Notes: a model not told the origin generated them from the letters alone. A stretch of DNA of 64,000 bases from Patescibacteria group bacterium (GCA_034003985.1 JAVEXP010000002.1:144789-208788); one strand, 5' to 3'; counted from the first letter of the stretch, positions 19,375 through 43,108 are shown. Translations and numbers: made by a program.

Positions 19375-19457
19375 TTTATTTGGTTGTTAAATATTTAAGG
19401 CTGAATTGACAGTCTTTTTGGTTTATGCTAGTCTGAATATGTTGTAAAAATAACAAT

Positions 19458-21377: not shown

Positions 21378-21381
21378 CAAT

Positions 21382-22851: not shown

Positions 22852-23462
22852 AAAAAAATGAAATCAAACTCATAATTTTTGATGCTTATGGAGCAGTCAT
22901 GAGTAGAGGTTATCCTGACACCATGGCGGTTTTGGCCAAAAGATTTGCTATTCCCGAAAAAAAATTGAGCGAGGTGATTTATCGCAAGTATTTTGAAATG
23001 GCCGCCCAACGCCAGATCACCCAAAAGCAGGCTTGGCAGTTGCCGGTTAAAGAGCTTAATTTGCCAATCAGTTGGCAAGAATTGCGCGATCTTCATTATG
23101 GTTTAATGGAGATAAACCAGCCGGTTTTTGAAATCGCTAAAAAACTCCGAAAAAAGTATAAGGTGATAATTTTAAGTAAGAGCACTAGAACGCAATTTGT
23201 TGATGTTTTAAAAAAGAAACATCCTCAAGTGCCAAGAAATTTTGATGCCATTGTCAATACTTGGGAACTTGGTCTGCCCAAAGCCTCAAAAGAGACTATT
23301 AGTTTTTTGGCTAAAAGATTTAAGATATCGCCCAAGGAGATTTTGTATATTGATGATCAGCGGTCAAACTTGGTCGCATTGGATAAAATGGGTGGAAAAA
23401 CGATTTACTATCAAAATTTTAAGCAATTTAAAAAAGAACTTGAGCACTACATTGATCTATGA
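22848..23462 (+). CDS. HAD-superfamily hydrolase with atypical motif I (D-x-Y-G)
   Basis: 204 aa. 'LIIFDAYGAVM' is motif I with Tyr at D+2; 'ILSKSTRTQ' is motif II; 'YIDDQRSNLVALDKMGGKTIY' is motif III/IV. ATGA overlaps on both sides place it in one operon with the paralog array. Confidence 0.7.
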   Translation: MKKNEIKLIIFDAYGAVMSRGYPDTMAVLAKRFAIPEKKLSEVIYRKYFEMAAQRQITQKQAWQLPVKELNLPISWQELRDLHYGLMEINQPVFEIAKKLRKKYKVIILSKSTRTQFVDVLKKKHPQVPRNFDAIVNTWELGLPKASKETISFLAKRFKISPKEILYIDDQRSNLVALDKMGGKTIYYQNFKQFKKELEHYIDL

Positions 23463-24931: not shown

Positions 24932-24974
24932 TTTAGATAAACAAAAAACAGCCGGATTGCTGTGGGGGGGGTGA

Positions 24975-25006
24975 GGGGAGAGAAGTCCATATTTGGATCT
25001 CTCCCC
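24975..25006. terminator. perfect 9-bp stem hairpin (GGGGAGAGA/TCTCTCCCC) beside a G8 tract, between convergent genes
   Basis: Read directly. It lies downstream of the stop of the minus-strand GC-rich gene (25029) and downstream of paralog 5 (24931). The arrangement mirrors the hairpin/poly-G pair at 2946-2998. Confidence 0.45.
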
Positions 25007-25028
25007 TCGGCGTGCGCGTTGGTGGGGT

Positions 25029-25685
25029 CTACGGGATGGCGATTCCATACCAGTCTTCTGAGAGGCGCAGGATTTCGATCTCGACGATTTTGCCGTCTTC
25101 GAAGGTCGCCAGGAATCCCTCGCAGTATTGAAGCTGGCCTTCAATTGCGTCCATCGTCATTGGCAGATTTGCACCCAGCCGGTTGGACAGTTTGATGGCC
25201 GCGCCGTCGATGGCCGCGCCGTGGACGGTGACCAAGTGGTCTCCTTCTACGGCTCCGCGTTCGTCAATGACTTCGAGCATCTCGCTACTCTTAATGTCTA
25301 CTGCCTCGGGAGCCGTTTCCATAATCGCCGCTTCGACGGTGATCTCGGCTGTCTTGGCATGGGCTTTGGCGGCCTTCAAACCTTCGCTTACGATGTCGCG
25401 CTTGTCAGTGCTGAAATCATCCAGCCGCGGATCATGCGCAATGTCGGGCTCGATAGCCGGTTTGTAGCCGCAGATCCCGCGGACGAGCACGATCAGGGTT
25501 CGCCAGCACCGGGGCTGGGGACTGCTGACATAGTCGACAAAGTGAAAGTTGAAGACCCGGACAAATACTCCCATCACAAATGCGATGACTTCGCCGCAGT
25601 CGGTCAGGGCCTGGGGGTCTTTCTCGTTTGCCTTGTCTCTCTCACTGTGTCGAATAACCAGTACTCTTGATTGCATCAGTCTCAT
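25029..25685 (-). CDS. histidine phosphatase superfamily protein (SixA / PGM-like branch), GC-rich foreign-looking gene
   Basis: Start set at the internal Met ('MRLMQSRVLVIRHSE...'), which has an AAGGA RBS 8 nt upstream. 'RVLVIRHSERD' matches the RHG motif context, 'LTDCGEV' the L-T-x-x-G loop, 'YVSSPQPRCWRT' the 'vySSPl.Ra.qTA' motif, and 'HLVTVHGAAI' the second catalytic His motif. GC is far above background. Confidence 0.6.
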   Translation of the reverse strand: MRLMQSRVLVIRHSERDKANEKDPQALTDCGEVIAFVMGVFVRVFNFHFVDYVSSPQPRCWRTLIVLVRGICGYKPAIEPDIAHDPRLDDFSTDKRDIVSEGLKAAKAHAKTAEITVEAAIMETAPEAVDIKSSEMLEVIDERGAVEGDHLVTVHGAAIDGAAIKLSNRLGANLPMTMDAIEGQLQYCEGFLATFEDGKIVEIEILRLSEDWYGIAIP

Positions 25686-25850
25686 CCTTCTTGTCTGGCC
25701 GCATTCTCTATTGCGGCCGCCATTCCTGCCATAAGTCACCAATCACACTGGTTGACTCGATAAAGCAGCAATCAGCACAGGGCGATTGCCGCTCAATTGA
25801 GCCAACCAATGATATAACACGCACTATTTAACTTTAAAGAACGATATATG

Positions 25851-25859
25851 ATTATAGCA
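25851..25859 (-). promoter_or_regulatory. putative extended -10 (TGCTATAAT on minus strand) for the GC-rich gene
   Basis: Minus-strand 'ACAAAATATGCTATAATCATAT' ~110 nt upstream of the gene. It shares the motif AAAATATGCTAT(A/T)AT with the promoter of the first GC island. Confidence 0.4.
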
Positions 25860-25986
25860 TATTTTGTAAATATTGTCAAAGGAAAATTAAAATTATTAGC
25901 TCAAATTAGCTAAAATATTGTAAAAATTACTGATTACTGCTAGAATTAAATTATTATTTTACCCTAAAAATCAAAATTTAAAAAAT

Positions 25987-26952
25987 ATGACAAAGTTTAC
26001 CAAACCATTCCCTAAAATTTCCAAAAAAGATGTTGCCATCGCCGGCGGCAAGGGTGCTTCGCTTGGCGAAATGACTAATGCTAAAATTCCAGTGCCTAAG
26101 GGGTTTGTAATTTTGGCTGAAGCCTTTGATCATTTCTTAAATGAAACCCCAAAATCGCCGGTTGCCCAAACCGATTTAGAAGTCGATGCTTTGCTTGCAA
26201 AAGTTAATTTTGATGATACTAATTCCATTGATAAGGCTTCCAATGTTATTCGTGATATTATGCACGACACCAAAATGCCAAAAGCTTTGGCTCAGGAAAT
26301 TGCCGCTGAATTCAAAAAACTCAAAACTAAATATGTAGCCGTCAGGTCTTCGGCTACGGCTGAAGATTCCTCAATCGCTTCTTGGGCCGGTGAGTTGGAA
26401 ACTTATCTGCACACGACTGAGAAGACATTGTTGGATAAAGTTAAACATTGCTGGTCATCACTATATACGCCTCGGGCGATTTTCTATCGTTATGAAAAAA
26501 AGCTGATTGACCAGCAAGTTTCAGTGGCTGTCGTTGTTCAAGAAATGGTCGAATCTGAAATTTCGGGGGTTGCCTTTACCGTCCATCCTGTTACCAAGGC
26601 TAAAAATCAAATGATCATTGAAGCCGGATTTGGCCTAGGCGAGGCGATTGTTTCCGGCCAGATTACCCCGGACAGTTATATTGTCGACAAGACTGATTTA
26701 TCTATTTTGGATATCAATGTGGCTGAACAAAAACGGATGTTGGTTCGTAAAAGTCAGGCCGGCGGCATTGTTTGGAAACCAGTAGCCAAAGCCAAACAGG
26801 AGTCGCAAGTACTTTCTGGTAAACAGATTATTGAATTGTCTAAAATCTGTATTAATATCGAAAAGCATTATAAATGTCCTCAGGATATTGAGTGGGCCTA
26901 CACCAAGGGCAAATTTTATATTACTCAATCAAGACCGATTACTACTCTTTAG
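25987..26952 (+). CDS. stand-alone ATP-grasp nucleotide-binding domain of the PEP synthase / pyruvate phosphate dikinase family (PPDK_N only)
   Basis: 321 aa. 'VAIAGGKGASLGEMTNAKIPVPKGFVILAEAF' matches the PpsA/PPDK N-terminus. It ends with 'PQDIEWAYTKGKFYITQSRPITTL', the C-terminal boundary of the ATP-grasp module. No His domain and no TIM barrel in the same ORF. Confidence 0.85.
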   Translation: MTKFTKPFPKISKKDVAIAGGKGASLGEMTNAKIPVPKGFVILAEAFDHFLNETPKSPVAQTDLEVDALLAKVNFDDTNSIDKASNVIRDIMHDTKMPKALAQEIAAEFKKLKTKYVAVRSSATAEDSSIASWAGELETYLHTTEKTLLDKVKHCWSSLYTPRAIFYRYEKKLIDQQVSVAVVVQEMVESEISGVAFTVHPVTKAKNQMIIEAGFGLGEAIVSGQITPDSYIVDKTDLSILDINVAEQKRMLVRKSQAGGIVWKPVAKAKQESQVLSGKQIIELSKICINIEKHYKCPQDIEWAYTKGKFYITQSRPITTL

Positions 26953-26958
26953 GTTTCT

Positions 26959-28500
26959 ATGACCGCCAAGATTTGGACTAAAAATTGGGAAATCAGGCGA
27001 GTTAGTTTTTTGCTCTCGCACGAAGCGCCCGAATCGTTTCTCAAACTGCAGAATCTTTATTTTGGCTCTAAAATTCTTACTCAAATCATTTGGGTAAACG
27101 AAAATCAAGATAATACCGCCACCTATTTTTTAAAGCCTGAACTGCGCCGGGCGATTGACGCCACTTTTGATTTGGTTGTTAATAATCCCGGCAAGGTTTC
27201 CCAAATTCACCGCCAAGCCATTGAACATAACCGCGACCTTTTCCGATTATTAAAAAAGACCCAGTCGGTTAATCTGGCTAAATTTTCCAACCAACAATTG
27301 GCTTTGCTCTATTCCAGAATTTTTAAAAAGATTCAGCTGGCCCATGGCTCCAGTTTTTACTCCACTTACTTGGTAGATGCCGATGGTGAAGACCTGACAA
27401 ATTATTTGATTAATAAAGTCCGCCAAAGAATTATTGAGCTTAAACTTAAGCTTAATTTTGCTGAAGTTTTCAGCCTATTGACCACCCCAACCAGGATTAA
27501 TTTGGAACAACTGGAAAACCGTCAATTTCTGGCGGTATTGAGCGATATTACCGCTGATTCCCAAGCTAAAAAATTATTCTTGGGGAATTTGCCTGATCAA
27601 ATTGAAAAGAAATTAAACGAATTGGACCCGCGGTTAAAGAGAAAAATTGTTAATCACCATCGGCGCTGGCAGTGGATTCCTTATGATTATTTAGGCCCAG
27701 CTTATGAACTTGGTTACTATTTAGAAATTTGGCGAGGGTTATTAAAACAAAAAATAAATATTAACAAAGAGATTGCCAAACTGGTTAATGGCCGTGATGA
27801 AATCAGGAAACAAAAAAATAAATTATTTAAACAGTTGGAGTTTAACCGTTATGACCGTCAAATTTTTGATTTGGCCAGTGAAATCGTTTGGCTTAAATCA
27901 TGGCGCAAAGAGGTTTTATTTTTTGCCAGTTTTATTGTTGATAAAGTTTATCAAGAGCTGGCCAGGCGCTGTCATATTTCGTTCAATCAAGCTAGGCACT
28001 TGACTAATATCGAGGTGGCCCAAGTTTTATCGGGCAAGGTTGTGCCGATTAATGAGTTAAATCAAAGAATAAAATTTGTCGTTATTCATTTTAAATCTTT
28101 CAGCAAACGGATAATGACTGGGGCAACGGCCAAAAAGTTTATGGCCACTCAGCATTTTGAAAAAATAAAGATTGTTGATGCTAAGGAGTTGAAAGGCACC
28201 CCGGCTTGTCCGGGTAAAGTCAAGGGTTTAGTCAAAATTGTCAATGTGCCAGATGAAATGTCTAAAATGAAATCCGGTAATATAATGGTGGCCCATTCGA
28301 CTTATCCTTCTTTGGTGCCGGCCATGAAAAAGGCCGGCGCGATTATTACCGAAGACGGCGGTTTAACCTGCCATGCGGCGATTGTGGCCCGAGAGTTAAA
28401 AATCCCTTGCGTGGTTGGAACCAGGATTGCCGCTAAAGTCTTGAAAGACGGTGATATGGTTGAAGTTGACGCCACCAATGGTATAATAAAAAAAGTATGA
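26959..28500 (+). CDS. paralog 6 with C-terminal phosphohistidine swivel domain
   Basis: 513 aa; starts 7 nt after the ATP-grasp gene. 'GNIMVAHSTYPSLVPAMKKAGAIITEDGGLTCHAAIVARELKIPCVVGT'; shares 'LTTPTRINL' and 'HHRRWQWIPYDY' with the other paralogs. Confidence 0.8.
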   Translation: MTAKIWTKNWEIRRVSFLLSHEAPESFLKLQNLYFGSKILTQIIWVNENQDNTATYFLKPELRRAIDATFDLVVNNPGKVSQIHRQAIEHNRDLFRLLKKTQSVNLAKFSNQQLALLYSRIFKKIQLAHGSSFYSTYLVDADGEDLTNYLINKVRQRIIELKLKLNFAEVFSLLTTPTRINLEQLENRQFLAVLSDITADSQAKKLFLGNLPDQIEKKLNELDPRLKRKIVNHHRRWQWIPYDYLGPAYELGYYLEIWRGLLKQKININKEIAKLVNGRDEIRKQKNKLFKQLEFNRYDRQIFDLASEIVWLKSWRKEVLFFASFIVDKVYQELARRCHISFNQARHLTNIEVAQVLSGKVVPINELNQRIKFVVIHFKSFSKRIMTGATAKKFMATQHFEKIKIVDAKELKGTPACPGKVKGLVKIVNVPDEMSKMKSGNIMVAHSTYPSLVPAMKKAGAIITEDGGLTCHAAIVARELKIPCVVGTRIAAKVLKDGDMVEVDATNGIIKKV

Positions 28501-31459: not shown

Positions 31460-32341
31460 TTGTCAAGATTTTTATCCCGAGGTATAATTGCAAATATGAA
31501 ATTTAAAGCAATTTTGGTTACAATTTTAATGGTTATTTTGACCGTCGGCTGCCAGTCTGATAATCGGGATTTAGTTGAACCGCTCCAAGAAAATTCAACT
31601 TCACTTGTCTCGACTGCTACCCCTGATATAGTTAATTCTCCTGCCGAAAAACCAGTCGTGGCTGATGTATCTGAATCGCCGTCCGAGCTACCGACGCAAT
31701 CTAAGTCCGTTGTCAGTCAACATGAACCAAGTTTATCAACTCCAAAAAATCTTGAATATCAGCTAGCTTTTGTCTCCCAGGCACCCTTTGGGGTGTGGGA
31801 TGAGCTCCATAAAGAAGCTTGCGAAGAAGCTTCGATGATTACGGTGGTCAAGTATTTTAAGTCGGAAATTTTGAATGCCCACACCATGGAGCAGGGCATT
31901 TTGGATCTGGTTAGCTGGGAGAAATCCCAGGGTTATCAAGTCGATCTGACTGCCCAAGAGGTGGTTGATATTTTGAATTCTCATTTTGATTTAGCAGCCG
32001 AATTAATTACCGTTGTTGATGTCTCGGTCGTCAAGGATCAGCTAACTAATGGCAAATTAGTAATCGTGCCGTTGGCTGGTCGGGTTCTTAATAATCCTTA
32101 TTTCCAAAATCCCGGGCCGATTTATCATATGTTAGTCATCAGGGGTTTTGATGACCAAAGCGCTGAATTTATTACTAACGAAGTCGGTACTAGAAGGGGA
32201 GACGGTTTCCGCTATGCTTATGGCCACCTTATTAATTCAATCCACGATTGGGATCATGACCTTGCCAAAGACGGTATGACCGATAACGAGATCAGTGGTA
32301 CCCCCAAGGCGATTATTAGTGTTGGTACTAAAATTGACTAA
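31460..32341 (+). CDS. lipoprotein with papain-like (peptidase C39-like) domain
   Basis: 293 aa. Lipobox-like 'LTVGC' follows a signal peptide. 'QAPFGVWDELHKEACEEASMITVVKYF' suggests a Cys-containing C39/BtrH-like fold. Later His/Asp candidates are 'YHMLVIRGFDD'. Confidence 0.45.
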   Translation: MSRFLSRGIIANMKFKAILVTILMVILTVGCQSDNRDLVEPLQENSTSLVSTATPDIVNSPAEKPVVADVSESPSELPTQSKSVVSQHEPSLSTPKNLEYQLAFVSQAPFGVWDELHKEACEEASMITVVKYFKSEILNAHTMEQGILDLVSWEKSQGYQVDLTAQEVVDILNSHFDLAAELITVVDVSVVKDQLTNGKLVIVPLAGRVLNNPYFQNPGPIYHMLVIRGFDDQSAEFITNEVGTRRGDGFRYAYGHLINSIHDWDHDLAKDGMTDNEISGTPKAIISVGTKID

Positions 32342-32500: not shown

Positions 32501-32860
32501 TTAATCTATTCCCGGCACAGTTGGTCGATTTGAACCGGTATTTATTCCGAAGGGATTCTTTACTGCCGGCCAGTTAACTAACTGGCTGTTTTTGTCTACT
32601 TTTTGTTCTAATGATTGAAGAGCTTTGTTGAATTTGTCGACATCAACGGTATAGGGCGAAACTTCACTTCGGAGAACAATAATTTGTTGTGATTGAGTGA
32701 TGGTTTGGTAGAAGTCTTTGTAGAGAAACCAACCTAAAAAGGCCAAAACAATGACAAAAGACGCTAAAATGATCATGGCGATGAGCTTGGTCGATAAAAA
32801 TTTTTTGGCGGCGGTATAGGGTATTTTTTTTATCTTCATATAATTAATTTGTTTCCTCAA
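32501..32860 (-). CDS. small bitopic membrane protein, likely pilus-assembly accessory (PilP-like position)
   Basis: 119 aa with a single TM helix. It is the last gene of the minus-strand pilM/N/O operon and overlaps the pilO stop. Confidence 0.35.
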   Translation of the reverse strand: MRKQINYMKIKKIPYTAAKKFLSTKLIAMIILASFVIVLAFLGWFLYKDFYQTITQSQQIIVLRSEVSPYTVDVDKFNKALQSLEQKVDKNSQLVNWPAVKNPFGINTGSNRPTVPGID

Positions 32861-33383
32861 TTAATTGTCGGCCGAATACTAAGCCGCTGAAGGTGGCGGT
32901 TATCATCTCCCGGTCGCTGGTTATTCTGAGGTCAGAAATATTGAAATAATATTTTAACATTTGAAGATCATTTAGATAACCCATTACTTGATGGAAATTG
33001 CCGCTGACCGTTATTTTTAATGGAATGTGCTTGATTCCTTTCTTTTCCTCAGTATTTTTGATTTGGAGATCAAGATTTTGTCTGACTCCGTTATTATCGG
33101 CCAAGTCTTCCAAGATTGATACAAATTTTAATTCTTCTCCATCTTTAATGAATATCTCATCCAGAATGTCTTGCTGCGGTTTGATTGCTTCAAAATCGCT
33201 GACCGTCTTTTTTAATAACTGTCCACGAAGGTATTTTTTTTCCAATTCGATTCGTTCTTGATAAATACTGTTGCTGATATTTTTGATGTCGTTAACCGTC
33301 GGAACAATAATAAATAAAATTATGACGGTAATAAATACCAGCACGGCAATCATGGAAATGGTAATTTTTAATTTGAAATTCAT
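32844..33383 (-). CDS. pilO: type IV pilus assembly protein PilO-like
   Basis: 179 aa with an N-terminal TM, a coiled-coil segment, then an alpha/beta domain. It follows PilN in operon order. Confidence 0.6.
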   Translation of the reverse strand: MNFKLKITISMIAVLVFITVIILFIIVPTVNDIKNISNSIYQERIELEKKYLRGQLLKKTVSDFEAIKPQQDILDEIFIKDGEELKFVSILEDLADNNGVRQNLDLQIKNTEEKKGIKHIPLKITVSGNFHQVMGYLNDLQMLKYYFNISDLRITSDREMITATFSGLVFGRQLIEETN

Positions 33384-33943
33384 AAATTCTTAATTTTGTT
33401 TGTGTCAATTTCCGCGCTAATATCGAAATTGATATTTTCTTTGTTTAGCAGGCTTTCTAGCGGAACATCTACTTTGTCAATGATTTCATAATTTTTAAGA
33501 TTGTTTTCAAATTGCAAAAGATCCTGCCGGCTTTGGGCGAACCCCGCGATTTTGATTGATTGGCCGTCGGCATTTAACCCGATGCTGTAGATGATTATGT
33601 TGTCGGGAATTTTTTCGACCAATTGGGCGATAAAATTGGTCCAAGGTATGTAATTTTTTTGAATTTCACTTACGGCCGACAATTGACTGTTGAATTTTTC
33701 CATTTCCCGGTTTGATATTTTTCCGTATTTTGTAGTTAGGGTGTAATCGGAAACCAGGTTATTGAAGCTATTTTGTAAGATTGCTTTGGCAACAAGCAGA
33801 ATAATAGCTATTGTTACCGTGAATAATAGAAAAACTATGGTTAAATTTTTAATAACAATATAAAACTGACGAAGGGATATTTCTTTTTTTTCCAACGGTG
33901 GTATTAAATTTAGGGCAATCATACAATATCGCCTTTCTGCCAA
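33380..33943 (-). CDS. pilN: type IV pilus assembly protein PilN
   Basis: 187 aa. The N-terminal 'ALNLIPPLEKKE' matches the PilN hallmark 'INLLP' motif, followed by a TM helix. Overlaps the pilM stop. Confidence 0.7.
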   Translation of the reverse strand: MAERRYCMIALNLIPPLEKKEISLRQFYIVIKNLTIVFLLFTVTIAIILLVAKAILQNSFNNLVSDYTLTTKYGKISNREMEKFNSQLSAVSEIQKNYIPWTNFIAQLVEKIPDNIIIYSIGLNADGQSIKIAGFAQSRQDLLQFENNLKNYEIIDKVDVPLESLLNKENINFDISAEIDTNKIKNL

Positions 33944-34998
33944 GCTCGGAGAGCTAGGCCGATGGCCGTGGTATAGGATTTTATTTTTTTGTCATCAAGT
34001 TCTAGTTTTTTATTAATCGCAGTATTGGTCAGCGGGTTGCCAATAGTGGCTGGCAATTTCAGTTTAGTTGACAAAATTTTATCAATATCTAATAAGTTAG
34101 CCCCACCGCCACAGATTATTATTTCCGCAATCGGGTTAGCCTGAGGAAAATTGGACTGATAGTAGGTTATTGATTTTTTAATATGGGTAGTTAAATTATC
34201 AATTGATGACATTAATATTTTTAGGATTGCGCCTTCACATTTTTTTTGATCCAGTCCGCAGACGATTTTGGCCTGATCAGCTTTTTTGTAGTCGATTTTT
34301 AGAGTTTTGGCAATGGTTTCTGAAATTTTATTGCCCGATATCGGTAAGCTAACGGTAAATTGAACCGTGCCCTGATCGTAGACAATTAAACCGCTCCTGG
34401 CGGCCCCAAAATCAATAATCAGCTTGGCAATGTTTTGGCCACTCTTTATTTGTTCTTTTTCGTTGATGATTGATCGAATAATCGCGATTGCTTCAATCTC
34501 TAAAGCCAGTGGTATTAGTCCCGATTTTTTTATCAGTTTTAAATAGCTTTCGGAAATATCTTTCGGAGTGGCCCCGGCCAAAATTTGGGCGCTAGAGCCA
34601 TTTTGTTTTAGGATTTTCCAGTCCAAGTAGATTTCGTCGATAGCCAGGGGGATATGGTTTTGAATTTCGGTTAGAACATCACCATCGGCCAAATCTTTTT
34701 TACCGCCAAGATTGGCGACATTAATCATCTTAACAAAAGTTTTCTGCTCCGGCAGAACGGCGATGACATTTTTAGTGACGATTTTATCGCCCTTGGCTTC
34801 TTTAATCAGTTTATCAATTTTTAGTGAAACCTTTTCTGGCTCAATAATTTCACCGCCATCAATTATCCCTGGTTCAAGTGTTAATTCATTGTACGACGAT
34901 ACTGTCAGGCCGCTGCCTTTCTTTTTAATTTGAACCAACCTTAGCGCGCGATCGCTGATGTCAAGGCCAAAAGCGTTATTGGATAAATCCCAAAGCAT
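33919..34998 (-). CDS. pilM: type IV pilus assembly protein PilM (actin-like ATPase fold)
   Basis: 359 aa. The N-terminus 'FGLDISDRALRLVQIKKKG' matches PilM 'iGiDiGs..ik.v'. ASKHA-like motifs 'IIDFGAARSGL' and 'IICGGGANL' are present. Confidence 0.8.
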   Translation of the reverse strand: MLWDLSNNAFGLDISDRALRLVQIKKKGSGLTVSSYNELTLEPGIIDGGEIIEPEKVSLKIDKLIKEAKGDKIVTKNVIAVLPEQKTFVKMINVANLGGKKDLADGDVLTEIQNHIPLAIDEIYLDWKILKQNGSSAQILAGATPKDISESYLKLIKKSGLIPLALEIEAIAIIRSIINEKEQIKSGQNIAKLIIDFGAARSGLIVYDQGTVQFTVSLPISGNKISETIAKTLKIDYKKADQAKIVCGLDQKKCEGAILKILMSSIDNLTTHIKKSITYYQSNFPQANPIAEIIICGGGANLLDIDKILSTKLKLPATIGNPLTNTAINKKLELDDKKIKSYTTAIGLALRAWQKGDIV

Positions 34999-35003
34999 AT
35001 TAA

Positions 35004-36416
35004 TTAGTATGTTTCATTATCGAATATTTCTTCCCATGATATAAATTGGTATTCGCCGGTTGTCGGAAAAAATGGCGGCGGGGCATACAGGGTGTTAGGG
35101 TCATAAATATAGTTACGATTGTTGTAGCCACTTGATCCGCTGTCCATGTAAGGTGTTAAGTAGCTGATGGTGGTACCGTATAAGGTGAATTGATCCCTGA
35201 CTGTTGTTGAACCGCATTGGAATGTCGAACCATAATCGGGACGATAACGCCGACCATTTTTAGCTATCAAGACCGCGTCAATTTCTAAGTCATTCTCGGA
35301 ATAAAGGCCAATGACGACATTTCGTTGGGCGATCAGACCAATAACATCCAAACCTTCTTTGTCGGTATAAAGCAAATCATTATTAAGGAAAATATCAGCT
35401 GTCCCCGTATCTAGTGGTTCTTTGGCAGCCACTACCGTCACCCGGTTGCCGTTTACCGTCCCGTCTACCCAGGCATTATCTTTGACGAAAATCAGACCAT
35501 TTTCCGGGATAGCAGTCGTAGTCCAGTCGTTTTGATATGAACTTATGCCGCCGGTTTTTTCGCCGTTGCAGTTTCCGGTAGCGCTGGCAACTTTTCGGTA
35601 ACGAAATGTTTCATTGCCCAAGAATTGAATATGGTAACCCTGGTAGCCTGAACTTTCAAGCAGAATGCCATCTGAGTCAGCGTGAGTTTCCATGGTATTC
35701 AGATCCTGAGTAAAACCGGCGAAATCAACTGCCGGTACCGGAAACTCTTTGCCGGCTAGAAAGACGGACTCTTCATTGTATTGGCTGGTCCAAACCCCGT
35801 CGCGCCAGGAGCTGTTATACCAATATTCTTCCAGGGCGCTGCTGACGATATTGTGGGCTACTCCGTCGAATCTGATGCCGCCGTTGGAGTGGACCGGCCC
35901 AAATGTTTCCGATCCTTCACCATAATTCAGGTTGTCATTAACCACAGTAGTATATCTCGCCAATGACGGCCGACCAAGTAAGACGGCGATGTTTCTTTTG
36001 GTTCGGGGATAATTTTTTGCCCAGCCGGTTGATTTTATTTTAACAACAGTGGATCCGGGATAGCTGGGATCGGGCGGGGTGATACTGATTTCAAAATAAC
36101 CAAGCAGTCCGCCACCCGGATCATAATACTCGTGGCGGTACGGCCCGCAAGGGTAACATCCGGTTTCACCGGTGCCATCAGCGTAATCTTCCAAGGCGTG
36201 AGCTAAATGCCAGCGGTAGTAATTGGCGCCCGCTTCGGCAATTTGTAAAGCCAGTGCTTGAGCCTCTCTTTGATTGCTTAATTTTCCCTGTTGATTGACC
36301 AGTCCCATTAAGCCACCGGCGATTACCAAAAATACTGAGGTGAATACTAAAATCGTTATCAGTATACCACCTTTTTGTTCATTTTTCAAAATTTTTGGCA
36401 AGATTTTGATCGCCAT
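35004..36416 (-). CDS. pilus-associated protein with PilX-like N-terminal TM segment
   Basis: 470 aa. Hydrophobic N-terminus 'GGILITILVFTSVFLVIAGGLMGLV' followed by 'REAQALALQIAEAGANYY', as in PilX_N family proteins. There is no canonical G|FTxxE prepilin site. Confidence 0.4.
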   Translation of the reverse strand: MAIKILPKILKNEQKGGILITILVFTSVFLVIAGGLMGLVNQQGKLSNQREAQALALQIAEAGANYYRWHLAHALEDYADGTGETGCYPCGPYRHEYYDPGGGLLGYFEISITPPDPSYPGSTVVKIKSTGWAKNYPRTKRNIAVLLGRPSLARYTTVVNDNLNYGEGSETFGPVHSNGGIRFDGVAHNIVSSALEEYWYNSSWRDGVWTSQYNEESVFLAGKEFPVPAVDFAGFTQDLNTMETHADSDGILLESSGYQGYHIQFLGNETFRYRKVASATGNCNGEKTGGISSYQNDWTTTAIPENGLIFVKDNAWVDGTVNGNRVTVVAAKEPLDTGTADIFLNNDLLYTDKEGLDVIGLIAQRNVVIGLYSENDLEIDAVLIAKNGRRYRPDYGSTFQCGSTTVRDQFTLYGTTISYLTPYMDSGSSGYNNRNYIYDPNTLYAPPPFFPTTGEYQFISWEEIFDNETY

Positions 36417-36418
36417 TG

Positions 36419-37039
36419 CTACAAATTATTTTTAAGATTTCTCAGCTGAGTGTTGGAGATTAGAATAAAATGTTCCGGCGCTTGGCCTGGATCGACATTA
36501 ATTTCCAGAAATATTCTGACCAGTCTGATTTGGTTTACTTCGGCTGGGGTTGGTAGGGGGTTATTCTGGGTGTCGGTTGGGTAGTTGGCATTGTAGTAGT
36601 AGAAAATTGGCGTTGAGCCGTTACGAACATATTCGGAAATAATATTAATGTCTTCAATTCCGTCGTAGACCGGTGGAAAGCCGGATGCTTCGGTAATACC
36701 TCGTTTTAGTTCGCTGCCTTCCAAAAAGTATCTTACTTTTTCAACCGATTCGTCAGCATCAATATCGCTGTAAAATGTCAAGCTTTGGTTCTGGGCGCTG
36801 GCAACGGCATAGCTGCCATTTTCCGATGGCGAAGCCTCTCGCAGCTCTTTAACAATAATATCCATGCCTTTGCGGGCGTTGTTGATTGCTTCGCTTTGTT
36901 CCAGGGCGAAGCGGTTGACTTTAAAATTCTGAACGACAAAACTGGTGGTGAATGTTGTAACCAACAGAAAAATGAAAATTGCAATCAGCATTTCGGTGAT
37001 GGTAAATCCATTTGGTCGTGGTTTTTGTTTAATCTCCAT
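36419..37039 (-). CDS. type IV pilin / pseudopilin (class III prepilin signal)
   Basis: 206 aa. 'KPRPNGFTITEMLIAIFIFLLV' contains the G|FT(I)TE prepilin peptidase cleavage/methylation motif. Confidence 0.85.
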   Translation of the reverse strand: MEIKQKPRPNGFTITEMLIAIFIFLLVTTFTTSFVVQNFKVNRFALEQSEAINNARKGMDIIVKELREASPSENGSYAVASAQNQSLTFYSDIDADESVEKVRYFLEGSELKRGITEASGFPPVYDGIEDINIISEYVRNGSTPIFYYYNANYPTDTQNNPLPTPAEVNQIRLVRIFLEINVDPGQAPEHFILISNTQLRNLKNNL

Positions 37040-37040
37040 G

Positions 37041-40000
37041 TTATTCCAAATTGATGATTATGCTTTTATTGTCTCCCGGGTCAAGCTCAATCGGTAATGG
37101 AGGTTCGGTTCCGACAATGTCAAAACCAGAACCAGTCGGCAACTCAATTGTATAAGTATCCCACTCCAAACTATTTAAAATAAGTTGACCGCTGGCATTG
37201 GTTGAATGATTCTCTTGATATTTGAATATCTCTGGATTTTTACCGATTCTCTTTTCACCGGTGATAATTAGTGGCACATTGGCCGTGTTGGTGTAGGCAT
37301 CGGGGTCTCCTGGATATTCGGCGGCCATAATGTCATAATCGCCGTTTTGGTTGTCTTGCCACGATATGACCAAATTTCCGACATTATTTATCAATAAATC
37401 GGGATTTTTTTGGTCGCCGGTGGTTATGGAATTGACCCGGATGTCCTTGGACCAAAGGATACTGCCCTCAGGGCTTATTTTTTGAGCATAGATATCGTTG
37501 TCGCCGTTTCGACCATCTTGCCAGACGATATAAATATTGCCGGTTTCATCGGTATTGGCCTTGGGGTTTTCTTGGACAGATCCCGACTGATTGCTTACAG
37601 TTGCGTCATTGGACCAAAGGATACTGCCCTCAGGGCTTATTTTTTGAGCATAGATATCGTTGTCGCCGTTTCGACCATCTTGCCAGACGATAATTGCTTG
37701 ATTGTTGTTATCAGCCGTTACAGATGGGTTATTCTGATCGGCAATTCCTAAGGTGTTAACCCGAATGTCATTAGGCCAAAGGATATTGCCGTTAGCATCA
37801 ACCTTTTGAATAAAAATATCGTAATTGTCAATTTGATAGTCTTCCCAAACGATATAAACATTTTCTTGATCGTCAACAGCCAGGTCAACCGATTGGGAGT
37901 AGCCCCCGCCGCTGGTGGTGTAGGAAAAACCGATGTTGATTTGATCCAGTTCTATTTGTTGAGTGCCGTTGCTTGCCAGGAAGGCTTTAAACATTATTTT
38001 TCCTCTGGTGGTAGGGAAGTGGTCAATATTGTCATTGATTGTTTCAGCCGGGTTATAGTCATTCGCTCCCGCGATCGCCCAATTGGCGCCGTTCCAGTAT
38101 CGCCAGCTGGTTCCGTTGTCATCGGAAAGTTGGTAGTAAATTTCCCCGCCGTTCTTGGTTGCCATTTCGGTGAATGAATCCCAACTTAATAAATTGTTAA
38201 TGGTTAGCGACTCAATTGAGTAAATGTTTGGTTGATCAGTGGGATAGCCCTCGCTTGAATCAGTCCACTCGCAGCCGCTTTGTTGCAGACAGCTAGTTTG
38301 ATTGTCAAAATTTTGACAATCGTTGGCTGCGCCACTACATGGTCCTTGATCATCCCAGTTGCAACCGCTTTGTTGGCAGCTTAGTTGGCTATCAAGATTT
38401 GGACAACTGCAACTGCCGCTGCAGCTGCCGCTACCCGAACCCCAGTTGCAATCGGCATCAACGCAGATTGGTTCATTATTAATATTACCGCAGTTGCATC
38501 CCGGGTTGCCATAACAGAAAAACCAAAACCAGGAACAGCCGGGAGTTGATTGACAACTGGTACGGTTACCGATTGAACCGCAGGAACAGCTGGTACCATA
38601 GCAGGAAGGTGGACTTGATTGCCAACTGCAGTTGTCTGAATAGTTACATTGATTCTCTTCGGAAATTTTTGAACAGTCGCAAGTCGTTCCTTCGCACGGG
38701 CCGGAATCATCCCAGGCGCAGCCATTCTGATTTAGACAATCTTGGCCCGTCAGGAAGCTGTCGCAGCTGTTGGCAGTACCGCCGCAGGTTTTAATTGGTA
38801 CCAATTTAGCGACGCTGTTGGTAACTTCAATTTTGGTGCTGCTATCGCAGGGGCCGTTATCGCAGACATAGTTTAAACCATTATCGAAATTCCAGCTGTA
38901 GCTATCGGCGGCTTGGTACATTGAGGAAGAATTTAAATTAACCTTTATTTCGTTGAGCCAAACCGGATTGCCGGCGCTGTCAATTTTTTGCAGGTATATG
39001 TCTGATCGGCCACTACCGGCGCGTTCGTCTTTCCAGGCGATATAAACTGCCGGAGCAGTACTGGAAGCGTTAAAAACAATTTTTGGGTGTTGTTGATTGG
39101 CGTAGGTGCCGTCGGTATTGACCATTAAATCGTTACCCCAAAGATTTTGTCCCGAATGGTTGTATTTGCCAACAAAAATATCTTGGTTGCCGTTGCGATC
39201 ATCATGCCAAACATAGTATATATTTTCCTGATCTAAAGTTATATCCGGCGCTCCTTGATTGTGGTTGGTCGTTATTTCTTTGTCGCTAACCCATTGGTTG
39301 GTTTGCTGATTGTAATTTTGACCGTAAATTCTGGCCGCAAAATTTCTGAAGTCTTGCCAGACAAAATAGTAATTGCCGTCTGGCCCAAGCTCTGAAGCGG
39401 GGGAAAACTGATCGGCGCTACCGCCATCAGTGTTAATTAGCCATTCCGTTGGGATTGTCTGGGAGACGGTGTTAATCGTAAGTGTTGTTAGGATGTCAAT
39501 CACAAAGCTGGTTTCAACCAGTTCGCCTTCAATTACCGACACATTTGGTTTTTGGGGATCAGGATTGCCTTCACTATCGCTACAACTTAAGCCCCCCGGA
39601 TCAATGGCGCAAGTGTAATCGCTGCTATAGCCGTCTTTGGTGATAGTAATCTGATAAGAGCTATTGGCGGCCGGAACACTGGAATAATAATAGCCCTGAT
39701 CGTTAGTTTGGTGGGAAGAGTCGTTAATCGGCGGAATAATTTGATTATTGACAATGTGGATTTGGGCATTCGGTACCGGTTCGCCTTGGGCATTGAAGAC
39801 ATTAATCCATAATACCCCTGACCCTTCATCTGACTCGATGCCCTTGGGAGCAATAGTGGTAACCGTTACCAATTCTTTCCGACCGAAATGTCCCAGCCAG
39901 CTTACCGCAATCCTTATTTTTTTATAATCATTTCCCAACTCATCGGTTCCTAAAGCCACCGTACCGTCAAAAGGATCATCATGATAATCAATGCTGACTT

Positions 40001-40286
40001 TAACCGAATATTCAATATTGTTGAGGGTTACGGTATCTTCCTGGGGGATTGGTCCGGGAATAATACCACCTTGCGTGCCGACTTTATTATATGGCAGATT
40101 GTGAATCATTTCGCCGATTTCATTGCCAATGGTGATTGCTCCGACCTTCGCTTTAGTTTCGGATATTACTTTGAGGCTAAACTCAAACATACTGATCACG
40201 CCCAACGAAGCGACTGCCATAATAAAAACAGCCACGATCAATTCAACTAAGGTAAAACCTTTTTGGTCAGTTTGGTGGTTTATCAT
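37041..40286 (-). CDS. giant prepilin-like adhesin: prepilin N-terminus + CarbopepD-like region + ~7 propeller-blade repeats + Cys-rich repeat module (PilY1-like function)
   Basis: 1081 aa. N-terminal 'QKGFTLVELIVAVFIMAV' prepilin motif. Repeats of the form 'Y(I/Y)VWxDxRNGxxDI(Y/F)xQK(I/V)xxxGxxLW' occur at least 7 times. The Cys-rich segment has repeated 'C..GC.W' units. An exact 84-bp internal duplication is present. Confidence 0.75.
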   Translation of the reverse strand: MINHQTDQKGFTLVELIVAVFIMAVASLGVISMFEFSLKVISETKAKVGAITIGNEIGEMIHNLPYNKVGTQGGIIPGPIPQEDTVTLNNIEYSVKVSIDYHDDPFDGTVALGTDELGNDYKKIRIAVSWLGHFGRKELVTVTTIAPKGIESDEGSGVLWINVFNAQGEPVPNAQIHIVNNQIIPPINDSSHQTNDQGYYYSSVPAANSSYQITITKDGYSSDYTCAIDPGGLSCSDSEGNPDPQKPNVSVIEGELVETSFVIDILTTLTINTVSQTIPTEWLINTDGGSADQFSPASELGPDGNYYFVWQDFRNFAARIYGQNYNQQTNQWVSDKEITTNHNQGAPDITLDQENIYYVWHDDRNGNQDIFVGKYNHSGQNLWGNDLMVNTDGTYANQQHPKIVFNASSTAPAVYIAWKDERAGSGRSDIYLQKIDSAGNPVWLNEIKVNLNSSSMYQAADSYSWNFDNGLNYVCDNGPCDSSTKIEVTNSVAKLVPIKTCGGTANSCDSFLTGQDCLNQNGCAWDDSGPCEGTTCDCSKISEENQCNYSDNCSWQSSPPSCYGTSCSCGSIGNRTSCQSTPGCSWFWFFCYGNPGCNCGNINNEPICVDADCNWGSGSGSCSGSCSCPNLDSQLSCQQSGCNWDDQGPCSGAANDCQNFDNQTSCLQQSGCEWTDSSEGYPTDQPNIYSIESLTINNLLSWDSFTEMATKNGGEIYYQLSDDNGTSWRYWNGANWAIAGANDYNPAETINDNIDHFPTTRGKIMFKAFLASNGTQQIELDQINIGFSYTTSGGGYSQSVDLAVDDQENVYIVWEDYQIDNYDIFIQKVDANGNILWPNDIRVNTLGIADQNNPSVTADNNNQAIIVWQDGRNGDNDIYAQKISPEGSILWSNDATVSNQSGSVQENPKANTDETGNIYIVWQDGRNGDNDIYAQKISPEGSILWSKDIRVNSITTGDQKNPDLLINNVGNLVISWQDNQNGDYDIMAAEYPGDPDAYTNTANVPLIITGEKRIGKNPEIFKYQENHSTNASGQLILNSLEWDTYTIELPTGSGFDIVGTEPPLPIELDPGDNKSIIINLE
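37447..37692. repeat. exact 84-bp in-frame tandem duplication (copies 37447..37530 and 37609..37692) inside the giant pilin gene
   Basis: Identical 84-mers 162 bp apart, read directly. They encode two 'DGRNGDNDIYAQKISPEGSILWS' blades. Confidence 0.85.
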
Positions 40287-41374
40287 TAAATTGATTGGCT
40301 TAAGCTGTACATTGGCATTATGACCGCGACTGCCATTCCGGCAACGGCAATGCCTAAAACTACCATCAATACCGGTTCGATAATCGATGGTAAATTTTCC
40401 ATCGTTTGAGATACTTCTTCCTCATAAAAATTTGCCGAATCTTCCAAGATTTCGTCTAATGCCCCAGTGTCTTCTCCGACCGCTATCATCTGCAGTACCA
40501 CTGGCGGAAAAATTTTGCTGTAGGAATCAAGAGATTGCCTGATACTGACGCCTTTCTTAATTTTTTCTTTAGCGTCGATTAAAGCCAGGCGATAAATAGT
40601 GTTTCCTAAAACATTGGCAGTTATTTCGAATGATTTCACGATCGGAATGTCGGTTCGTAACAGGGAACTAATGGTTCGGCAGAATCTGGCCAGATTTATT
40701 TTTTTGATTATTGGACTGACAATCGGTAGTTTTAATAGAAATTGATGAAATTTTTGTTTGCCTTTTGGGGTGTTGATTATTTTAACAAACCCGGCAATGA
40801 TTATTACCGCTCCAATCGCCAGAAAAATTCCGTATTTCAGGGCAAAATCACTCAACCAAATTAGAATTCTCGTGGCCAATGGTAGATCAACTTCCAGTTC
40901 TTTAAATACCCCGGAAATTGCCGGAATAACATAGATTACCACCAAAATGCCGATTGCCACCATCATGGTAATGACTATGATTGGATAAATCATTGCTCCT
41001 TTGACCTTGGCCACCAGTTCGTGGTCTTTTTTCATTTGTAAAAATAACTGATGTAGTACATCTTCCAATTTACCGGAAGCTTCCCCGGCTCTGATCATAT
41101 TGATGAATAAATCGCCGAATATTTTATGGTATTTTTCCAAACCCTTTGATAATAAGTTACCTTTTTCGACGCTTTGTTGAAGATCAAATAAAATTTCCCG
41201 AAAACCTTTGTTGGTTGTTTGCTCCGAGAGGGTTTTTAAGGCCATCGACAAAGAGATACCGGCTTTGAGCATTACCGACAATTGTTGGACGAAAAATATT
41301 TTTTGGGACAGTTTTATGGACCTGGTTTTGGTCAGGATGTTCCCAAACTTTTGAAGATATTGGTTGAAGTTCAT
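40286..41374 (-). CDS. pilC: type IV pilus inner-membrane platform protein PilC (GspF family)
   Basis: 362 aa. Two T2SSF-like repeats, each with the conserved 'GE.sG.L' pattern ('AGEASGKLEDVL', 'VGEDTGALDEIL'), and three TM segments. Confidence 0.85.
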   Translation of the reverse strand: MNFNQYLQKFGNILTKTRSIKLSQKIFFVQQLSVMLKAGISLSMALKTLSEQTTNKGFREILFDLQQSVEKGNLLSKGLEKYHKIFGDLFINMIRAGEASGKLEDVLHQLFLQMKKDHELVAKVKGAMIYPIIVITMMVAIGILVVIYVIPAISGVFKELEVDLPLATRILIWLSDFALKYGIFLAIGAVIIIAGFVKIINTPKGKQKFHQFLLKLPIVSPIIKKINLARFCRTISSLLRTDIPIVKSFEITANVLGNTIYRLALIDAKEKIKKGVSIRQSLDSYSKIFPPVVLQMIAVGEDTGALDEILEDSANFYEEEVSQTMENLPSIIEPVLMVVLGIAVAGMAVAVIMPMYSLSQSI

Positions 41375-41383
41375 TTTTATTTT

Positions 41384-43108
41384 TTAATCTTTGCTTACCC
41401 GTAAAACTTCTTCAATGGTGGTAATTCCATTTTTGGCTTTGATAAAACCATCTTCAATAATGGTGATCATTCCGGCTTTACGAGCCTCGGTCATAATATT
41501 TTCCGCCGGCGCTGATTTGAGGATTAATTCGTTAATTGCCGGAGTTACTTCCAAAACTTCGTACAGCCCGACTCGGCCCTTGTATCCGGTTTTATCACAT
41601 TTTTTGCAGCCTTTACCGCGATAGAACAGCAAAGATTCTTTGCTTTGTTTTTTGGTGATTAGGCCTTCTCGTTCAAGAATACTGAGAATTGAATCCAGAT
41701 TAATTTGTTTTTCTAATTTGGCGATTTCGTTTTTGTCCAAAGTGTAACTTTCGATACATTCTTGGCATATTTTTCTGACTAGTCTTTGGGCGATGATAAC
41801 ATTGGTAGTTGACCCGATCAAAAACGATGGAATGCCCATTTCGCTCAGTCGAGGCAGGGTAGTTGGCGCGTCGTTGGTGTGCAATGTGGACAATACCAGA
41901 TGTCCGGTCAAAGCGGCATTGACCGCAATTTCCGCCGTTTCTTTGTCACGGATTTCACCAACCATAATAATATTGGGATCCTGCCTTAAAAAAGATCTTA
42001 AACCGGCGGCAAAAGTGTAGCCGATTTTAGGGTTGATCTGGCTTTGATTGATTCCCGGCATCCGATATTCAATCGGATCTTCAATAGTAGTAATGTTTAC
42101 TTCCGGTTTATTGAGGATGTTTAGAATGGAATACAGGGTTGTTGTTTTTCCCGAACCAGTGGGTCCGGTGACTAAAATCATGCCATGGGGTTTGGTAATA
42201 TTTTTTTTGATCTTTTCCAGCGGCTGCTTGTTAAATCCTAGCTGTTCCAAACTGATGGCGCCAGTTTGTTCATTAAGGGCGCGCAAGACTATTTTTTCTC
42301 CATCATATGTCGGAATAATTGAAACCCGGAAAGAAACTTTATATTCGTTGGTTTGGATTTTAAAACGGCTGTCTTGGGGTAGACGATGTTCGTCAAGTTT
42401 AAGATTGGACAAGATTTTAATTCTGGCGACAATCCCGGCATGAACCGATTTTGGCAAAGTCATTACATTTCTTAGAATGCCGTCAATTCGGTATCTGACC
42501 AGCACTTCTTTTTCGGTTGGTTCAATATGAATATCAGATGCATTCTCAAAAATGGCATACTCCAAGAGAGTATCCACAATCCTGATGACTGGCAAATCAT
42601 GAGCCAATTCTTTCAAATTGCCGCCTTCTTCAGTTTCGGTCTCTTGATCTTTGGTTAAATCCTTAAATTCGGCTTTTAAGCCTTTGTGGTAGAGCTTTAG
42701 ACTCTCATTTATCCCTTCCGGGGTGGTAATGTAGACTTGGACATCAGCCCCGGTTTTTTTGGCCAGAAATTCAAAGATTTGTAAGTTATTGGGATCAAGG
42801 GTGGCGATTTTTAGCTGATCGTCGTTTCGGTCAAAGGCGATAATGCGGTGAGTGGCCGCAATCGGCTCGGGAATTAAAAAAAGAATATCTTTTCTGATAG
42901 TCTCATTTTTCAGATCAATAAACGGCAAATCAAAATATTTGGCTGCGTTTTGATATAGCTGTTCTTGGCTGAGGATCTTTTGGCTGGCCAGATATTCTTC
43001 CAGGGTTTGGTTTCGTTTTTTAGCTTCTTCAAGATAAAGCTGGAGTTCATTCTTGGCAATGGTTTTGGTCTCCAATAAAATTTGTTTTAGTTTTTCTTCT
43101 TTAAACAT
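41384..43108 (-). CDS. pilB: type IV pilus assembly ATPase PilB (GspE family)
   Basis: 574 aa. Walker A 'LVTGPTGSGKTTTLYS'; Asp box / Walker B 'IIMVGEIRD'; His box 'GHLVLSTLHTNDA'; C-terminal tetracysteine 'CQEC...CKKCDKTGYKGR'. Confidence 0.9.
   Translation of the reverse strand: MFKEEKLKQILLETKTIAKNELQLYLEEAKKRNQTLEEYLASQKILSQEQLYQNAAKYFDLPFIDLKNETIRKDILFLIPEPIAATHRIIAFDRNDDQLKIATLDPNNLQIFEFLAKKTGADVQVYITTPEGINESLKLYHKGLKAEFKDLTKDQETETEEGGNLKELAHDLPVIRIVDTLLEYAIFENASDIHIEPTEKEVLVRYRIDGILRNVMTLPKSVHAGIVARIKILSNLKLDEHRLPQDSRFKIQTNEYKVSFRVSIIPTYDGEKIVLRALNEQTGAISLEQLGFNKQPLEKIKKNITKPHGMILVTGPTGSGKTTTLYSILNILNKPEVNITTIEDPIEYRMPGINQSQINPKIGYTFAAGLRSFLRQDPNIIMVGEIRDKETAEIAVNAALTGHLVLSTLHTNDAPTTLPRLSEMGIPSFLIGSTTNVIIAQRLVRKICQECIESYTLDKNEIAKLEKQINLDSILSILEREGLITKKQSKESLLFYRGKGCKKCDKTGYKGRVGLYEVLEVTPAINELILKSAPAENIMTEARKAGMITIIEDGFIKAKNGITTIEEVLRVSKD

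Follow-up and report, generated by a model that had tools for sequence, protein, structure and literature searches.

A large modular type IV pilin with a predicted split seven-bladed propeller encoded in a Patescibacteria pilus operon

A 64,000-nucleotide stretch of a Patescibacteria group bacterium genome (GCA_034003985.1 JAVEXP010000002.1:144789-208788; GC content 41%), hereafter the window, contains a type IV pilus (T4P) operon in which a 1081-residue prepilin is encoded directly after pilC. The prepilin gene occupies positions 37041–40286 of the minus strand (ATG at 40286–40284, stop codon at 37043–37041) as an open reading frame (ORF) with no interruptions, and plus-strand translation of the same interval gives many stops. 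The initial annotation of the window had the position right and left the strand unstated. The start codon overlaps the pilC stop codon (TAATG), and one nucleotide separates the prepilin stop codon from the ATG of the next gene. The operon lies entirely on the minus strand in the order pilB (PilB-type assembly ATPase; 41384–43108; T2SSE, E = 1e-132, and MshEN), pilC (platform protein; 40286–41374; T2SSF, E = 3.5e-54), the 1081-residue pilin gene, a gene for a second, 206-residue prepilin (36419–37039), a gene for a 470-residue protein (35004–36416), pilM (33919–34998), pilN (33380–33943), pilO (32844–33383) and a gene for a 119-residue membrane protein (32501–32860), with PilM, PilN and PilO assigned by a Pfam scan. 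The window flanks carry mur/ftsW cell-wall genes and the genes for CTP synthase and ribosomal protein L9. An exact-sequence look-up with the pilin gave no match, and a related-locus search using the pilin protein alone returned two genomes, both with long forms of the protein.

The N-terminus of the pilin (MINHQTDQKG followed by FTLVELIVAVFIMAVASLGVI) is a canonical class III signal peptide, with Gly−1, Phe+1 and Glu+5 represented by G10, F11 and E15. Prepilin-peptidase cleavage is predicted after G10 and would release a leader peptide of residues 1–10 (40257–40286; all pilin features are on the minus strand). The N-terminal methylation/class III motif (residues 7–30; 40197–40268) scores above the cut-offs of the hidden Markov models (HMMs) Pfam N_methyl PF07963 (30.9 bits; cut-off, 21.2) and NCBIfam TIGR02532 (IV_pilin_GFxxxE; 24.4 bits; cut-off, 16.3). 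For a degenerate DNA pattern encoding GFTLxE, the window contains a single match, where 0.01 would be expected by calculation, and a six-frame scan of the 64 kb for class III motifs identified, besides the pilin, only the 206-residue gene product. In a 34-sequence family alignment (A1), the signal peptide Gly is invariant and the Glu is at least 90% conserved. The class III signal peptide proposed in the initial annotation, including the Glu5 context (FTLVE) singled out there for checking, is thus borne out by HMM matches, by the cleavage-site residues and by the location in a T4P operon. Alignment A1 and the first structure model were built from 37041–40283 (minus strand) with Met1 dropped, and their positions are one below the protein numbering used here.

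An AlphaFold2 model based on the 34 sequences (mean predicted local distance difference test (pLDDT) score, 76) contains a helix of ∼50 residues (∼13–62) followed by four antiparallel strands (pLDDT ∼80–88). This long α1 helix and four-stranded sheet form the pilin module (residues ∼11–153; 39828–40256). Minor-pilin family models give weak matches to this module: those to TIGR02523 (PilV; 20.5; cut-off, 52.2) and TIGR01707 (GspI; 16.9; cut-off, 44.35) are restricted to the N-terminal helix, and weak N-terminal matches to ComGE and ComGF are also observed. The protein is a type IV pilin. Modular pilins were defined as a pilin module with at least one domain that is not T4P-specific (Raynaud et al. 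2021, PMC8179133), and the protein belongs to this class because a CarboxypepD_reg-like domain, a β-propeller, a jelly-roll and an immunoglobulin (Ig)-like domain are added to its pilin module. A major-pilin role was rejected because the protein is too large.

The pilin module is followed by a CarboxypepD_reg-like β-sandwich (residues ∼155–252; 39531–39824) that holds the C226/C235 pair. The PF13620 match of this domain (residues 163–224; 58 of 82 model positions) lies just under the cut-off (31.0 versus 32.3 bits), and 33 of the 34 family members match PF13620 at E ≤ 0.01 (best E, 1.4e-13), in line with the CarbopepD-like segment noted previously. At the opposite end, the chain terminates in an Ig-like β-sandwich (residues 1003–1081; 37044–37280), assigned from the model, that is also conserved in ∼600-residue relatives. 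Matches to Big_1, SpaA and Big_15 occur in some relatives.

Between the two β-sandwiches, the motif Y.VW.D.RNG..DIY.QK...G..LW occurs exactly seven times in repeats of ∼54 residues (residues ∼286–341, 342–394, 395–454, 796–848, 849–902, 903–956 and 957–1002). Each repeat is folded into four strands in the structure model (DSSP; pLDDT ∼90 in the blade segments), and the conserved residues compose one structural motif (W.D.RNG..DIY.QK) in every blade. All top Foldseek matches of the model are propellers. The initial annotation had suggested at least seven propeller-type repeats and had named structure prediction as the check; the model agrees with seven four-stranded blades, which are not contiguous. 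Blades 1–3 (residues 286–454; 38925–39431; from repeats and the model) are separated from blades 4–7 (residues 798–1002; 37281–37895; from repeats, the model and matches to Protein Data Bank (PDB) sequences) in a 3+4 arrangement.

We infer that blades 1–7 close into a single ring from which a domain of ∼340 residues loops out between blades 3 and 4. This arrangement is suggested by short homologues of ∼740 residues, in which the seven blades are contiguous, by the confident modelling of both halves and by Foldseek alignments to single sialidase propellers (449–471 residues) that span 770–798 columns and bridge the insertion. A reading as two separate half-propellers was rejected on account of the contiguous blades of the short homologues. 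The loops that connect propeller blades generally lie on the top face (PMC8916777), and the insertion is therefore probably located at this face, by analogy. At the nucleotide level, blades 5 and 6 share 88 nucleotides at 99% identity (37443–37530 and 37605–37692), 162 nucleotides apart, which points to a recent duplication within the gene or to gene conversion. One Logan contig from the same organism breaks off in the pilin gene, and the near-identity of blades 5 and 6 is a likely cause of assembly breaks.

The propeller had been described as PilY1-like, and this label is not sustained. PF05567, the model that defines the PilY1/PilC propeller, matches neither the whole pilin nor, even at E ≤ 10, its isolated blades. 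Moreover, a family-profile search of PDB sequences retrieved no PilY1 chain at E ≤ 1, and no PilY1 structure is among the top 50 Foldseek matches. Membership of the PilY1 family was accordingly rejected. The closest sequence relatives of the blades are the CylK propeller (7fh6, 7ron), designed "Bagel" propellers with their archaeal "cell surface protein" parents (8prj, 8pra) and TIGR04275. In the PDB sequence searches, the family profile matches the seven-bladed CylK propeller with an E value of 3e-11, and the C-terminal blades match the Bagel propellers and their parents, also with an E value of 3e-11. TIGR04275, a PQQ-like propeller repeat, matches the pilin in three stretches with 48.4 bits (cut-off, 85). 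No Pfam PQQ or SBBP match is found in the pilin, and SBBP is matched in three of the 34 relatives. RCC1 does not match the pilin either, for which Pfam returns only N_methyl and CarboxypepD_reg. Judged by sequence, the likeness of the blades to PQQ-like/TIGR04275 propellers is remote but real. CylK shares the seven-bladed architecture of the pilin propeller, but it is an alkylating enzyme of the cytoplasm and has an additional Ca-binding domain. The ∼54-residue period of the pilin blades also differs from the 40-position TIGR04275 model and from the ∼40-residue spacing of the Bagel propellers. No functional inference carries over from the likeness to CylK and Bagel, and a literature search on the Bagel designed propellers gave nothing relevant.

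The insertion between blades 3 and 4 (residues ∼456–797; 37896–38921; from the homologue gap and the model) is missing with sharp boundaries from all 24 aligned ∼740-residue homologues, whose sequences align back to back to residues 1–∼460 and ∼800–1081 (BLASTP and A1). It starts immediately behind the final strand of blade 3 (...KVNLNSSS), and its end, ...GGGYS, directly precedes the conserved Gln with which blade 4 opens. Only nine database proteins (1081–1112 residues; 52–63% identity to the pilin) are long forms with the insertion. An assembly or frameshift artefact was rejected, since these nine homologues are independent and carry the insertion with all of its Cys residues conserved.

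A stand-alone model of the insertion (28 sequences; pLDDT 85) depicts a jelly-roll that encloses a Cys-rich array. The jelly-roll is assembled from N-terminal strands (residues 456–498; 38793–38921) and a C-terminal main part (residues 681–797; 37896–38246) with an Asp-box-like LSDDNGTSW segment, and its strands are modelled with pLDDT scores of 90–99. The Cys-framed repeats reported in the initial annotation are found here as six tandem units (residues 499–680; 38247–38792; 28 Cys residues) that loop out of the jelly-roll. Each unit consists of 28–35 residues (∼30) with the consensus CxCx8Cx5(G)CxWx6CxG and adopts a short helix and a hairpin (pLDDT 54–92). All 30 Cys residues of the insertion are invariant in the ten long-form proteins, in which no other part varies as much as the repeat region does outside its Cys residues (50% identity). 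This conservation of Cys residues in a variable region fits disulfide-stabilised mini-domains. In the models, the protein would thus be nested at three levels, with the propeller enclosing the jelly-roll and the jelly-roll enclosing the Cys array.

Neither the jelly-roll nor the Cys repeats match Pfam, NCBIfam or PDB sequences. Pfam searches at E ≤ 10 with the isolated Cys module, jelly-roll, blades and C-terminal domain gave nothing meaningful, and a phmmer search of the PDB with the insertion gave a single match, at E = 1. By fold, the jelly-roll weakly resembles carbohydrate-binding modules (CBMs) of the CBM6 (2cdo, 2cdp), CBM86 and CBM4 families, the furin P domain and phage tail proteins (best E, 1.6e-3), as well as ConA/LamG-like domains of viral tail proteins. 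The predicted fold is weakly suggestive of a CBM/lectin-like module.

The insertion is a shuffled pilin module, by sequence comparison, and not a peculiarity of this gene. A complete HMMER search of 1.84 billion cluster representatives, with the insertion as query, yielded 857 proteins at E ≤ 1e-3, of which 428 reach E ≤ 1e-10. The part matched is nearly always the jelly-roll, which is often present in two to seven copies, and the proteins are 600–2600 residues long. Among the best 141 of the 857, 86 have a class III-type N-terminus and eight more start inside the hydrophobic helix, so that about two thirds are pilin-like; at least three Cys repeats are also present in 15 of these 141 proteins. 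The complete cassette of jelly-roll and Cys array aligns as one piece in pilins that contain no propeller (for example, P0109 and P0090). It is this recurrence across pilins, including that of the whole cassette outside a propeller, that identifies the insertion as a shuffled module. In another candidate phyla radiation (CPR) contig (L007, 1811–3989), a 589-residue pilin bearing the jelly-roll (P0095) is encoded after pilC and a 154-residue prepilin, and jelly-roll modular pilins thus also occur in the post-pilC region of other lineages.

All four features noted in the initial annotation are real and far beyond chance. The strand, the nested ∼340-residue insertion in the propeller, the C-terminal Ig-like domain and the two downstream minor-pilin-like genes had not been seen.

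The position of the pilin gene recurs in related operons with different contents. The order PilB-PilC-[X]-∼205 residues-∼475 residues is retained with X as a 745-residue form in a Buchananbacteria contig, as a 1084-residue form in a Patescibacteria metagenome-assembled genome (MAG) and as a 600-residue relative in a further contig that has only the pilin, CarboxypepD_reg-like and C-terminal Ig-like domains in common with the 1081-residue pilin. In the locus of the 600-residue form (L006, 2546–3935), a diversity-generating retroelement (bAvd accessory protein and reverse transcriptase) is situated directly upstream of pilB; the window showed no comparable element.

The second prepilin (NGFTITEMLIAIFIFLL), identified by N_methyl, gspJ and the motif scan, is weakly GspJ/ComGE-like. 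It matches N_methyl with 22.2 bits (cut-off, 21.2), gives a weak gspJ match (E = 3e-4; residues 11–103) that extends past the helix and has no PDB match. The 470-residue protein has an N-terminal hydrophobic helix and no Glu+5, and is PilX/GspK-like. The protein itself matches nothing in Pfam or the PDB, and a few of its 2475 homologues (41–78% identity among the best 120 listed) carry PF14341 PilX_N. It is 100% identical to RB292_02665 from a "Patescibacteria group bacterium" MAG, and its closest named relatives, from Candidatus Buchananbacteria, are 74% identical. The gene is among the best-conserved of the operon across Patescibacteria, and its product appears to be a core component of the pilus, so far uncharacterised, whose N-terminus is PilX-like. 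By comparison, the family of the 1081-residue pilin comprises 80 detectable homologues. The slot after pilC is thus variable by module gain, whereas the neighbouring 470-residue gene is strongly conserved.

The three consecutive genes, for two prepilins and then a large protein without Glu+5, the latter a feature of GspK and PilX, recall GspI-GspJ-GspK and PilV-PilW-PilX. However, the family matches are confined to the N-terminal helix except for the weak gspJ match of the 206-residue protein, and the first member is huge here, whereas GspI is normally the smallest. The resemblance of the three gene products to an I-J-K-type priming or tip set is a weak one at the sequence level.

Among characterised systems, the closest functional analogues of the pilin may be PilX1 and PilX2 of Saccharibacteria and PilB and PilC of Streptococcus sanguinis. 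PilX1 and PilX2 of TM7x (Nanosynbacter lyticus) are CPR T4P proteins encoded with pilus genes (PMC11623550). PilX2 contains a seven-bladed propeller that resembles the lectin CV39L (6GXS), which is also a Foldseek match of the present pilin, and the jelly-roll of PilX1, which is CBM-like, escapes recognition by domain databases (PMC11623550). PilX2 is needed for host binding and not for filament extrusion (PMC11623550). Compared by description rather than by sequence alignment, the pilin unites PilX1-type and PilX2-type modules in one chain. It differs from PilX1 and PilX2, for which no PilD signal peptide is predicted, in its canonical signal peptide, its location right after pilC, its nested insertion and its far larger size. 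Moreover, the PilX2 blades are RCC1 repeats, whereas those of the pilin are nearest to CylK and PQQ-like repeats.

In S. sanguinis PilB (vWA) and PilC (ConA-like lectin), a class III pilin module likewise bears a grafted binding module, and both proteins are predicted or shown to be located at the tip and to function as adhesins (PMC8179133, PMC9934059). The present pilin instead carries a propeller, an unclassified jelly-roll and Cys repeats, and its modules number five rather than two and are inserted into one another rather than arranged in series. The combination of a pilin with PF13620 is among the commonest modular pilin architectures and has a CPR representative (PMC8179133). PilY1/PilC of Pseudomonas and Neisseria (PF05567/IPR008707) resembles the pilin as a large protein of the T4P minor-pilin tip complex with a seven-bladed propeller and a modular N-terminal part. 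However, PilY1 is not itself a pilin (PMC8179133) and docks as a non-pilin protein, whereas the propeller described here, which PilY1 family models do not match, is fused directly to the pilin module. Given this fusion, no separate PilY1-like protein would be needed, and the role of the pilin may be analogous to that of PilY1.

Modular pilins were already known as a category, as was a propeller-bearing minor pilin that mediates host binding in Saccharibacteria (PMC11623550). New here are the particular modules, a CylK/PQQ-like propeller together with an undescribed jelly-roll family and an undescribed Cys repeat. The predicted three-level nesting, the presence of a canonical signal peptide on a propeller pilin of this size and a slot that varies by module gain are also new.

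We favour, with moderate confidence, the interpretation that the protein is a modular minor type IV pilin that serves as a tip adhesin for a host-surface ligand, probably a glycan. A pilin-tip adhesin had already been proposed in the initial annotation, and this remains the best reading, with TM7x PilX2 as a precedent (PMC11623550). Prepilin peptidase would remove the 10-residue leader, and the pilin module would join the two downstream minor-pilin-like proteins in a pilus-priming complex that ends at the pilus tip. Tip location is suggested by size, as a 115-kDa subunit cannot fit the filament shaft, an argument made for S. sanguinis PilB (PMC8179133), and modular pilins were judged compatible only with a tip location (PMC8179133). 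The propeller and the inserted jelly-roll would bind a ligand on the host or partner-cell surface, most likely a cell-wall glycan, and this binding would mediate attachment of the episymbiont. Ligand recognition by the pilin ectodomain is suggested by the recurrence of lectin/CBM-like modules as shuffled cassettes in many pilins. In TM7x, deletion of PilX2 halves host binding, and exogenous sugars inhibit binding (PMC11623550). The 30 invariant Cys residues would form disulfides that stiffen the exposed module, and the insertion, as a shuffled pilin cassette, would add or change ligand specificity relative to the ∼740-residue form of the same slot.

Several points weigh against this interpretation. 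The pilin head fits neither PilV, GspI nor any other specific minor-pilin family, the HMM matches being restricted to the helix, and the scanned ORFs of the window included no gene for a prepilin peptidase (Peptidase_A24), a retraction ATPase or a major pilin. Ring closure and the top-face location of the insertion are derived from homologues and from general propeller topology (PMC8916777). A folded subunit of ∼115 kDa would have to cross the cell wall or S-layer, and thirty disulfide-bonded Cys residues would call for an oxidative folding pathway in what is probably an anaerobe.

An adhesive function is not the only one that these modules could serve. The protein could prime pilus assembly as a core minor pilin or pseudopilin whose body is structural or spans the envelope as a wall or S-layer spacer, or it could be a membrane-anchored surface protein located off the pilus. 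The fixed place of the gene after pilC and before two minor-pilin-like genes in an I-J-K-like order is consistent with such a role, as are the weak N-terminal matches to PilV, GspI and ComGE and the failure to find a retraction ATPase in the window. Core priming pilins are, however, small and conserved, whereas this slot holds proteins of 600, 745 or 1081 residues with only 80 homologues against 2475 for the 470-residue neighbour, and shuffled lectin/CBM-like cassettes suggest ligand recognition rather than a scaffold; a priming or surface role without adhesion is considered unlikely.

The propeller could also be an enzyme (a glycoside hydrolase, lyase or sialidase-like protein) that cuts host cell-wall polysaccharide from the pilus or the cell surface. 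The best Foldseek matches are indeed GH43 arabinanase/xylanase, sialidases and PL25 ulvan lyase, but the template modelling scores to GH43 and sialidase propellers are low (0.2–0.44 by target length and ∼0.15–0.2 by query). The GH43 and sialidase folds are five- and six-bladed, against seven blades here. A few short relatives give weak matches to GH43 (two of 34; best E, 1e-5) or BNR_4 (eight of 34; best E, 2.9e-12), whereas no glycosidase, lyase or sialidase HMM matches the pilin or, even at E ≤ 10, its isolated blades. CylK, the closest solved sequence relative, is an enzyme, but its active site is formed at the interface with a domain that is missing here (PMC8916777). The residues conserved in the pilin propeller belong to the repeated blade motif and not to a single active-site constellation, and an enzymatic function appears improbable. 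CPR bacteria are not known to synthesise nucleotides, and DNA uptake has been proposed as a function of their type IV pili. The pilin might accordingly be a DNA receptor of a competence-type pilus that supplies DNA or nucleotides to a bacterium without its own synthesis, to which the weak ComGE and ComGF matches could be related. These matches cover only the generic pilin helix, a DNA-binding domain is not present, and the protein is acidic and Asn/Ser-rich (88 Asp and 49 Glu versus 35 Lys and 15 Arg), which makes this role very improbable.

Elsewhere in the window, tandem paralogous ORFs on the plus strand (16649–28500) each end in a PEP-utilizers mobile domain (PF00391). PF00391 is contained in the ORFs at 16649–18157, 18154–19374, 19458–21377, 21382–22851 and 23459–24931, whereas the ORF at 26959–28500 ends in a similar motif, and its 513-residue counterpart in locus L005 carries PF00391. 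A stand-alone PPDK_N ORF is located at 25987–26952. The N-terminal parts of the array ORFs have no Pfam match, and the array is an unusual expansion for a reduced genome. A Peptidase_C39_2-like lipoprotein-type gene (31460–32341, plus strand) adjoins the end of the pilus operon and has a syntenic counterpart in both L005 and the Buchananbacteria locus L001. Within the window's first ∼14 kb, a 700-residue ORF without a Pfam match (3898–6000, minus strand) and a 457-residue PEGA-domain protein (12535–13908, minus strand) are encoded among glycosyltransferase and dTDP-sugar (RmlD-like, NTP-transferase) genes.

Cultures are lacking for almost all CPR/Patescibacteria, and how they locate and attach to their hosts has been established by experiment only in a few Saccharibacteria, in which a propeller-bearing minor pilin is involved. 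The locus provides a concrete candidate adhesin for a different CPR lineage, near Buchananbacteria. As a tentative and rather doubtful extension of the tip-adhesin interpretation, the insertion, with its undescribed jelly-roll family and new disulfide-rich repeat, may be a mobile specificity cassette that is shuffled among CPR tip pilins, placed here in the ligand-binding face of a propeller, and changes host recognition. If so, the host range of non-Saccharibacteria CPR would be determined mainly by the variable slot after pilC, and host pairing could be predicted from the module content of this slot in genomes. Two families that have no Pfam or NCBIfam model, the jelly-roll (at least 857 clusters, mostly pilins) and the 30-residue five-Cys repeat, are represented in this one pilin. 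With both defined, many hundreds of large "hypothetical" surface proteins of CPR would be better annotated, and both could serve as markers in studies of host specificity.

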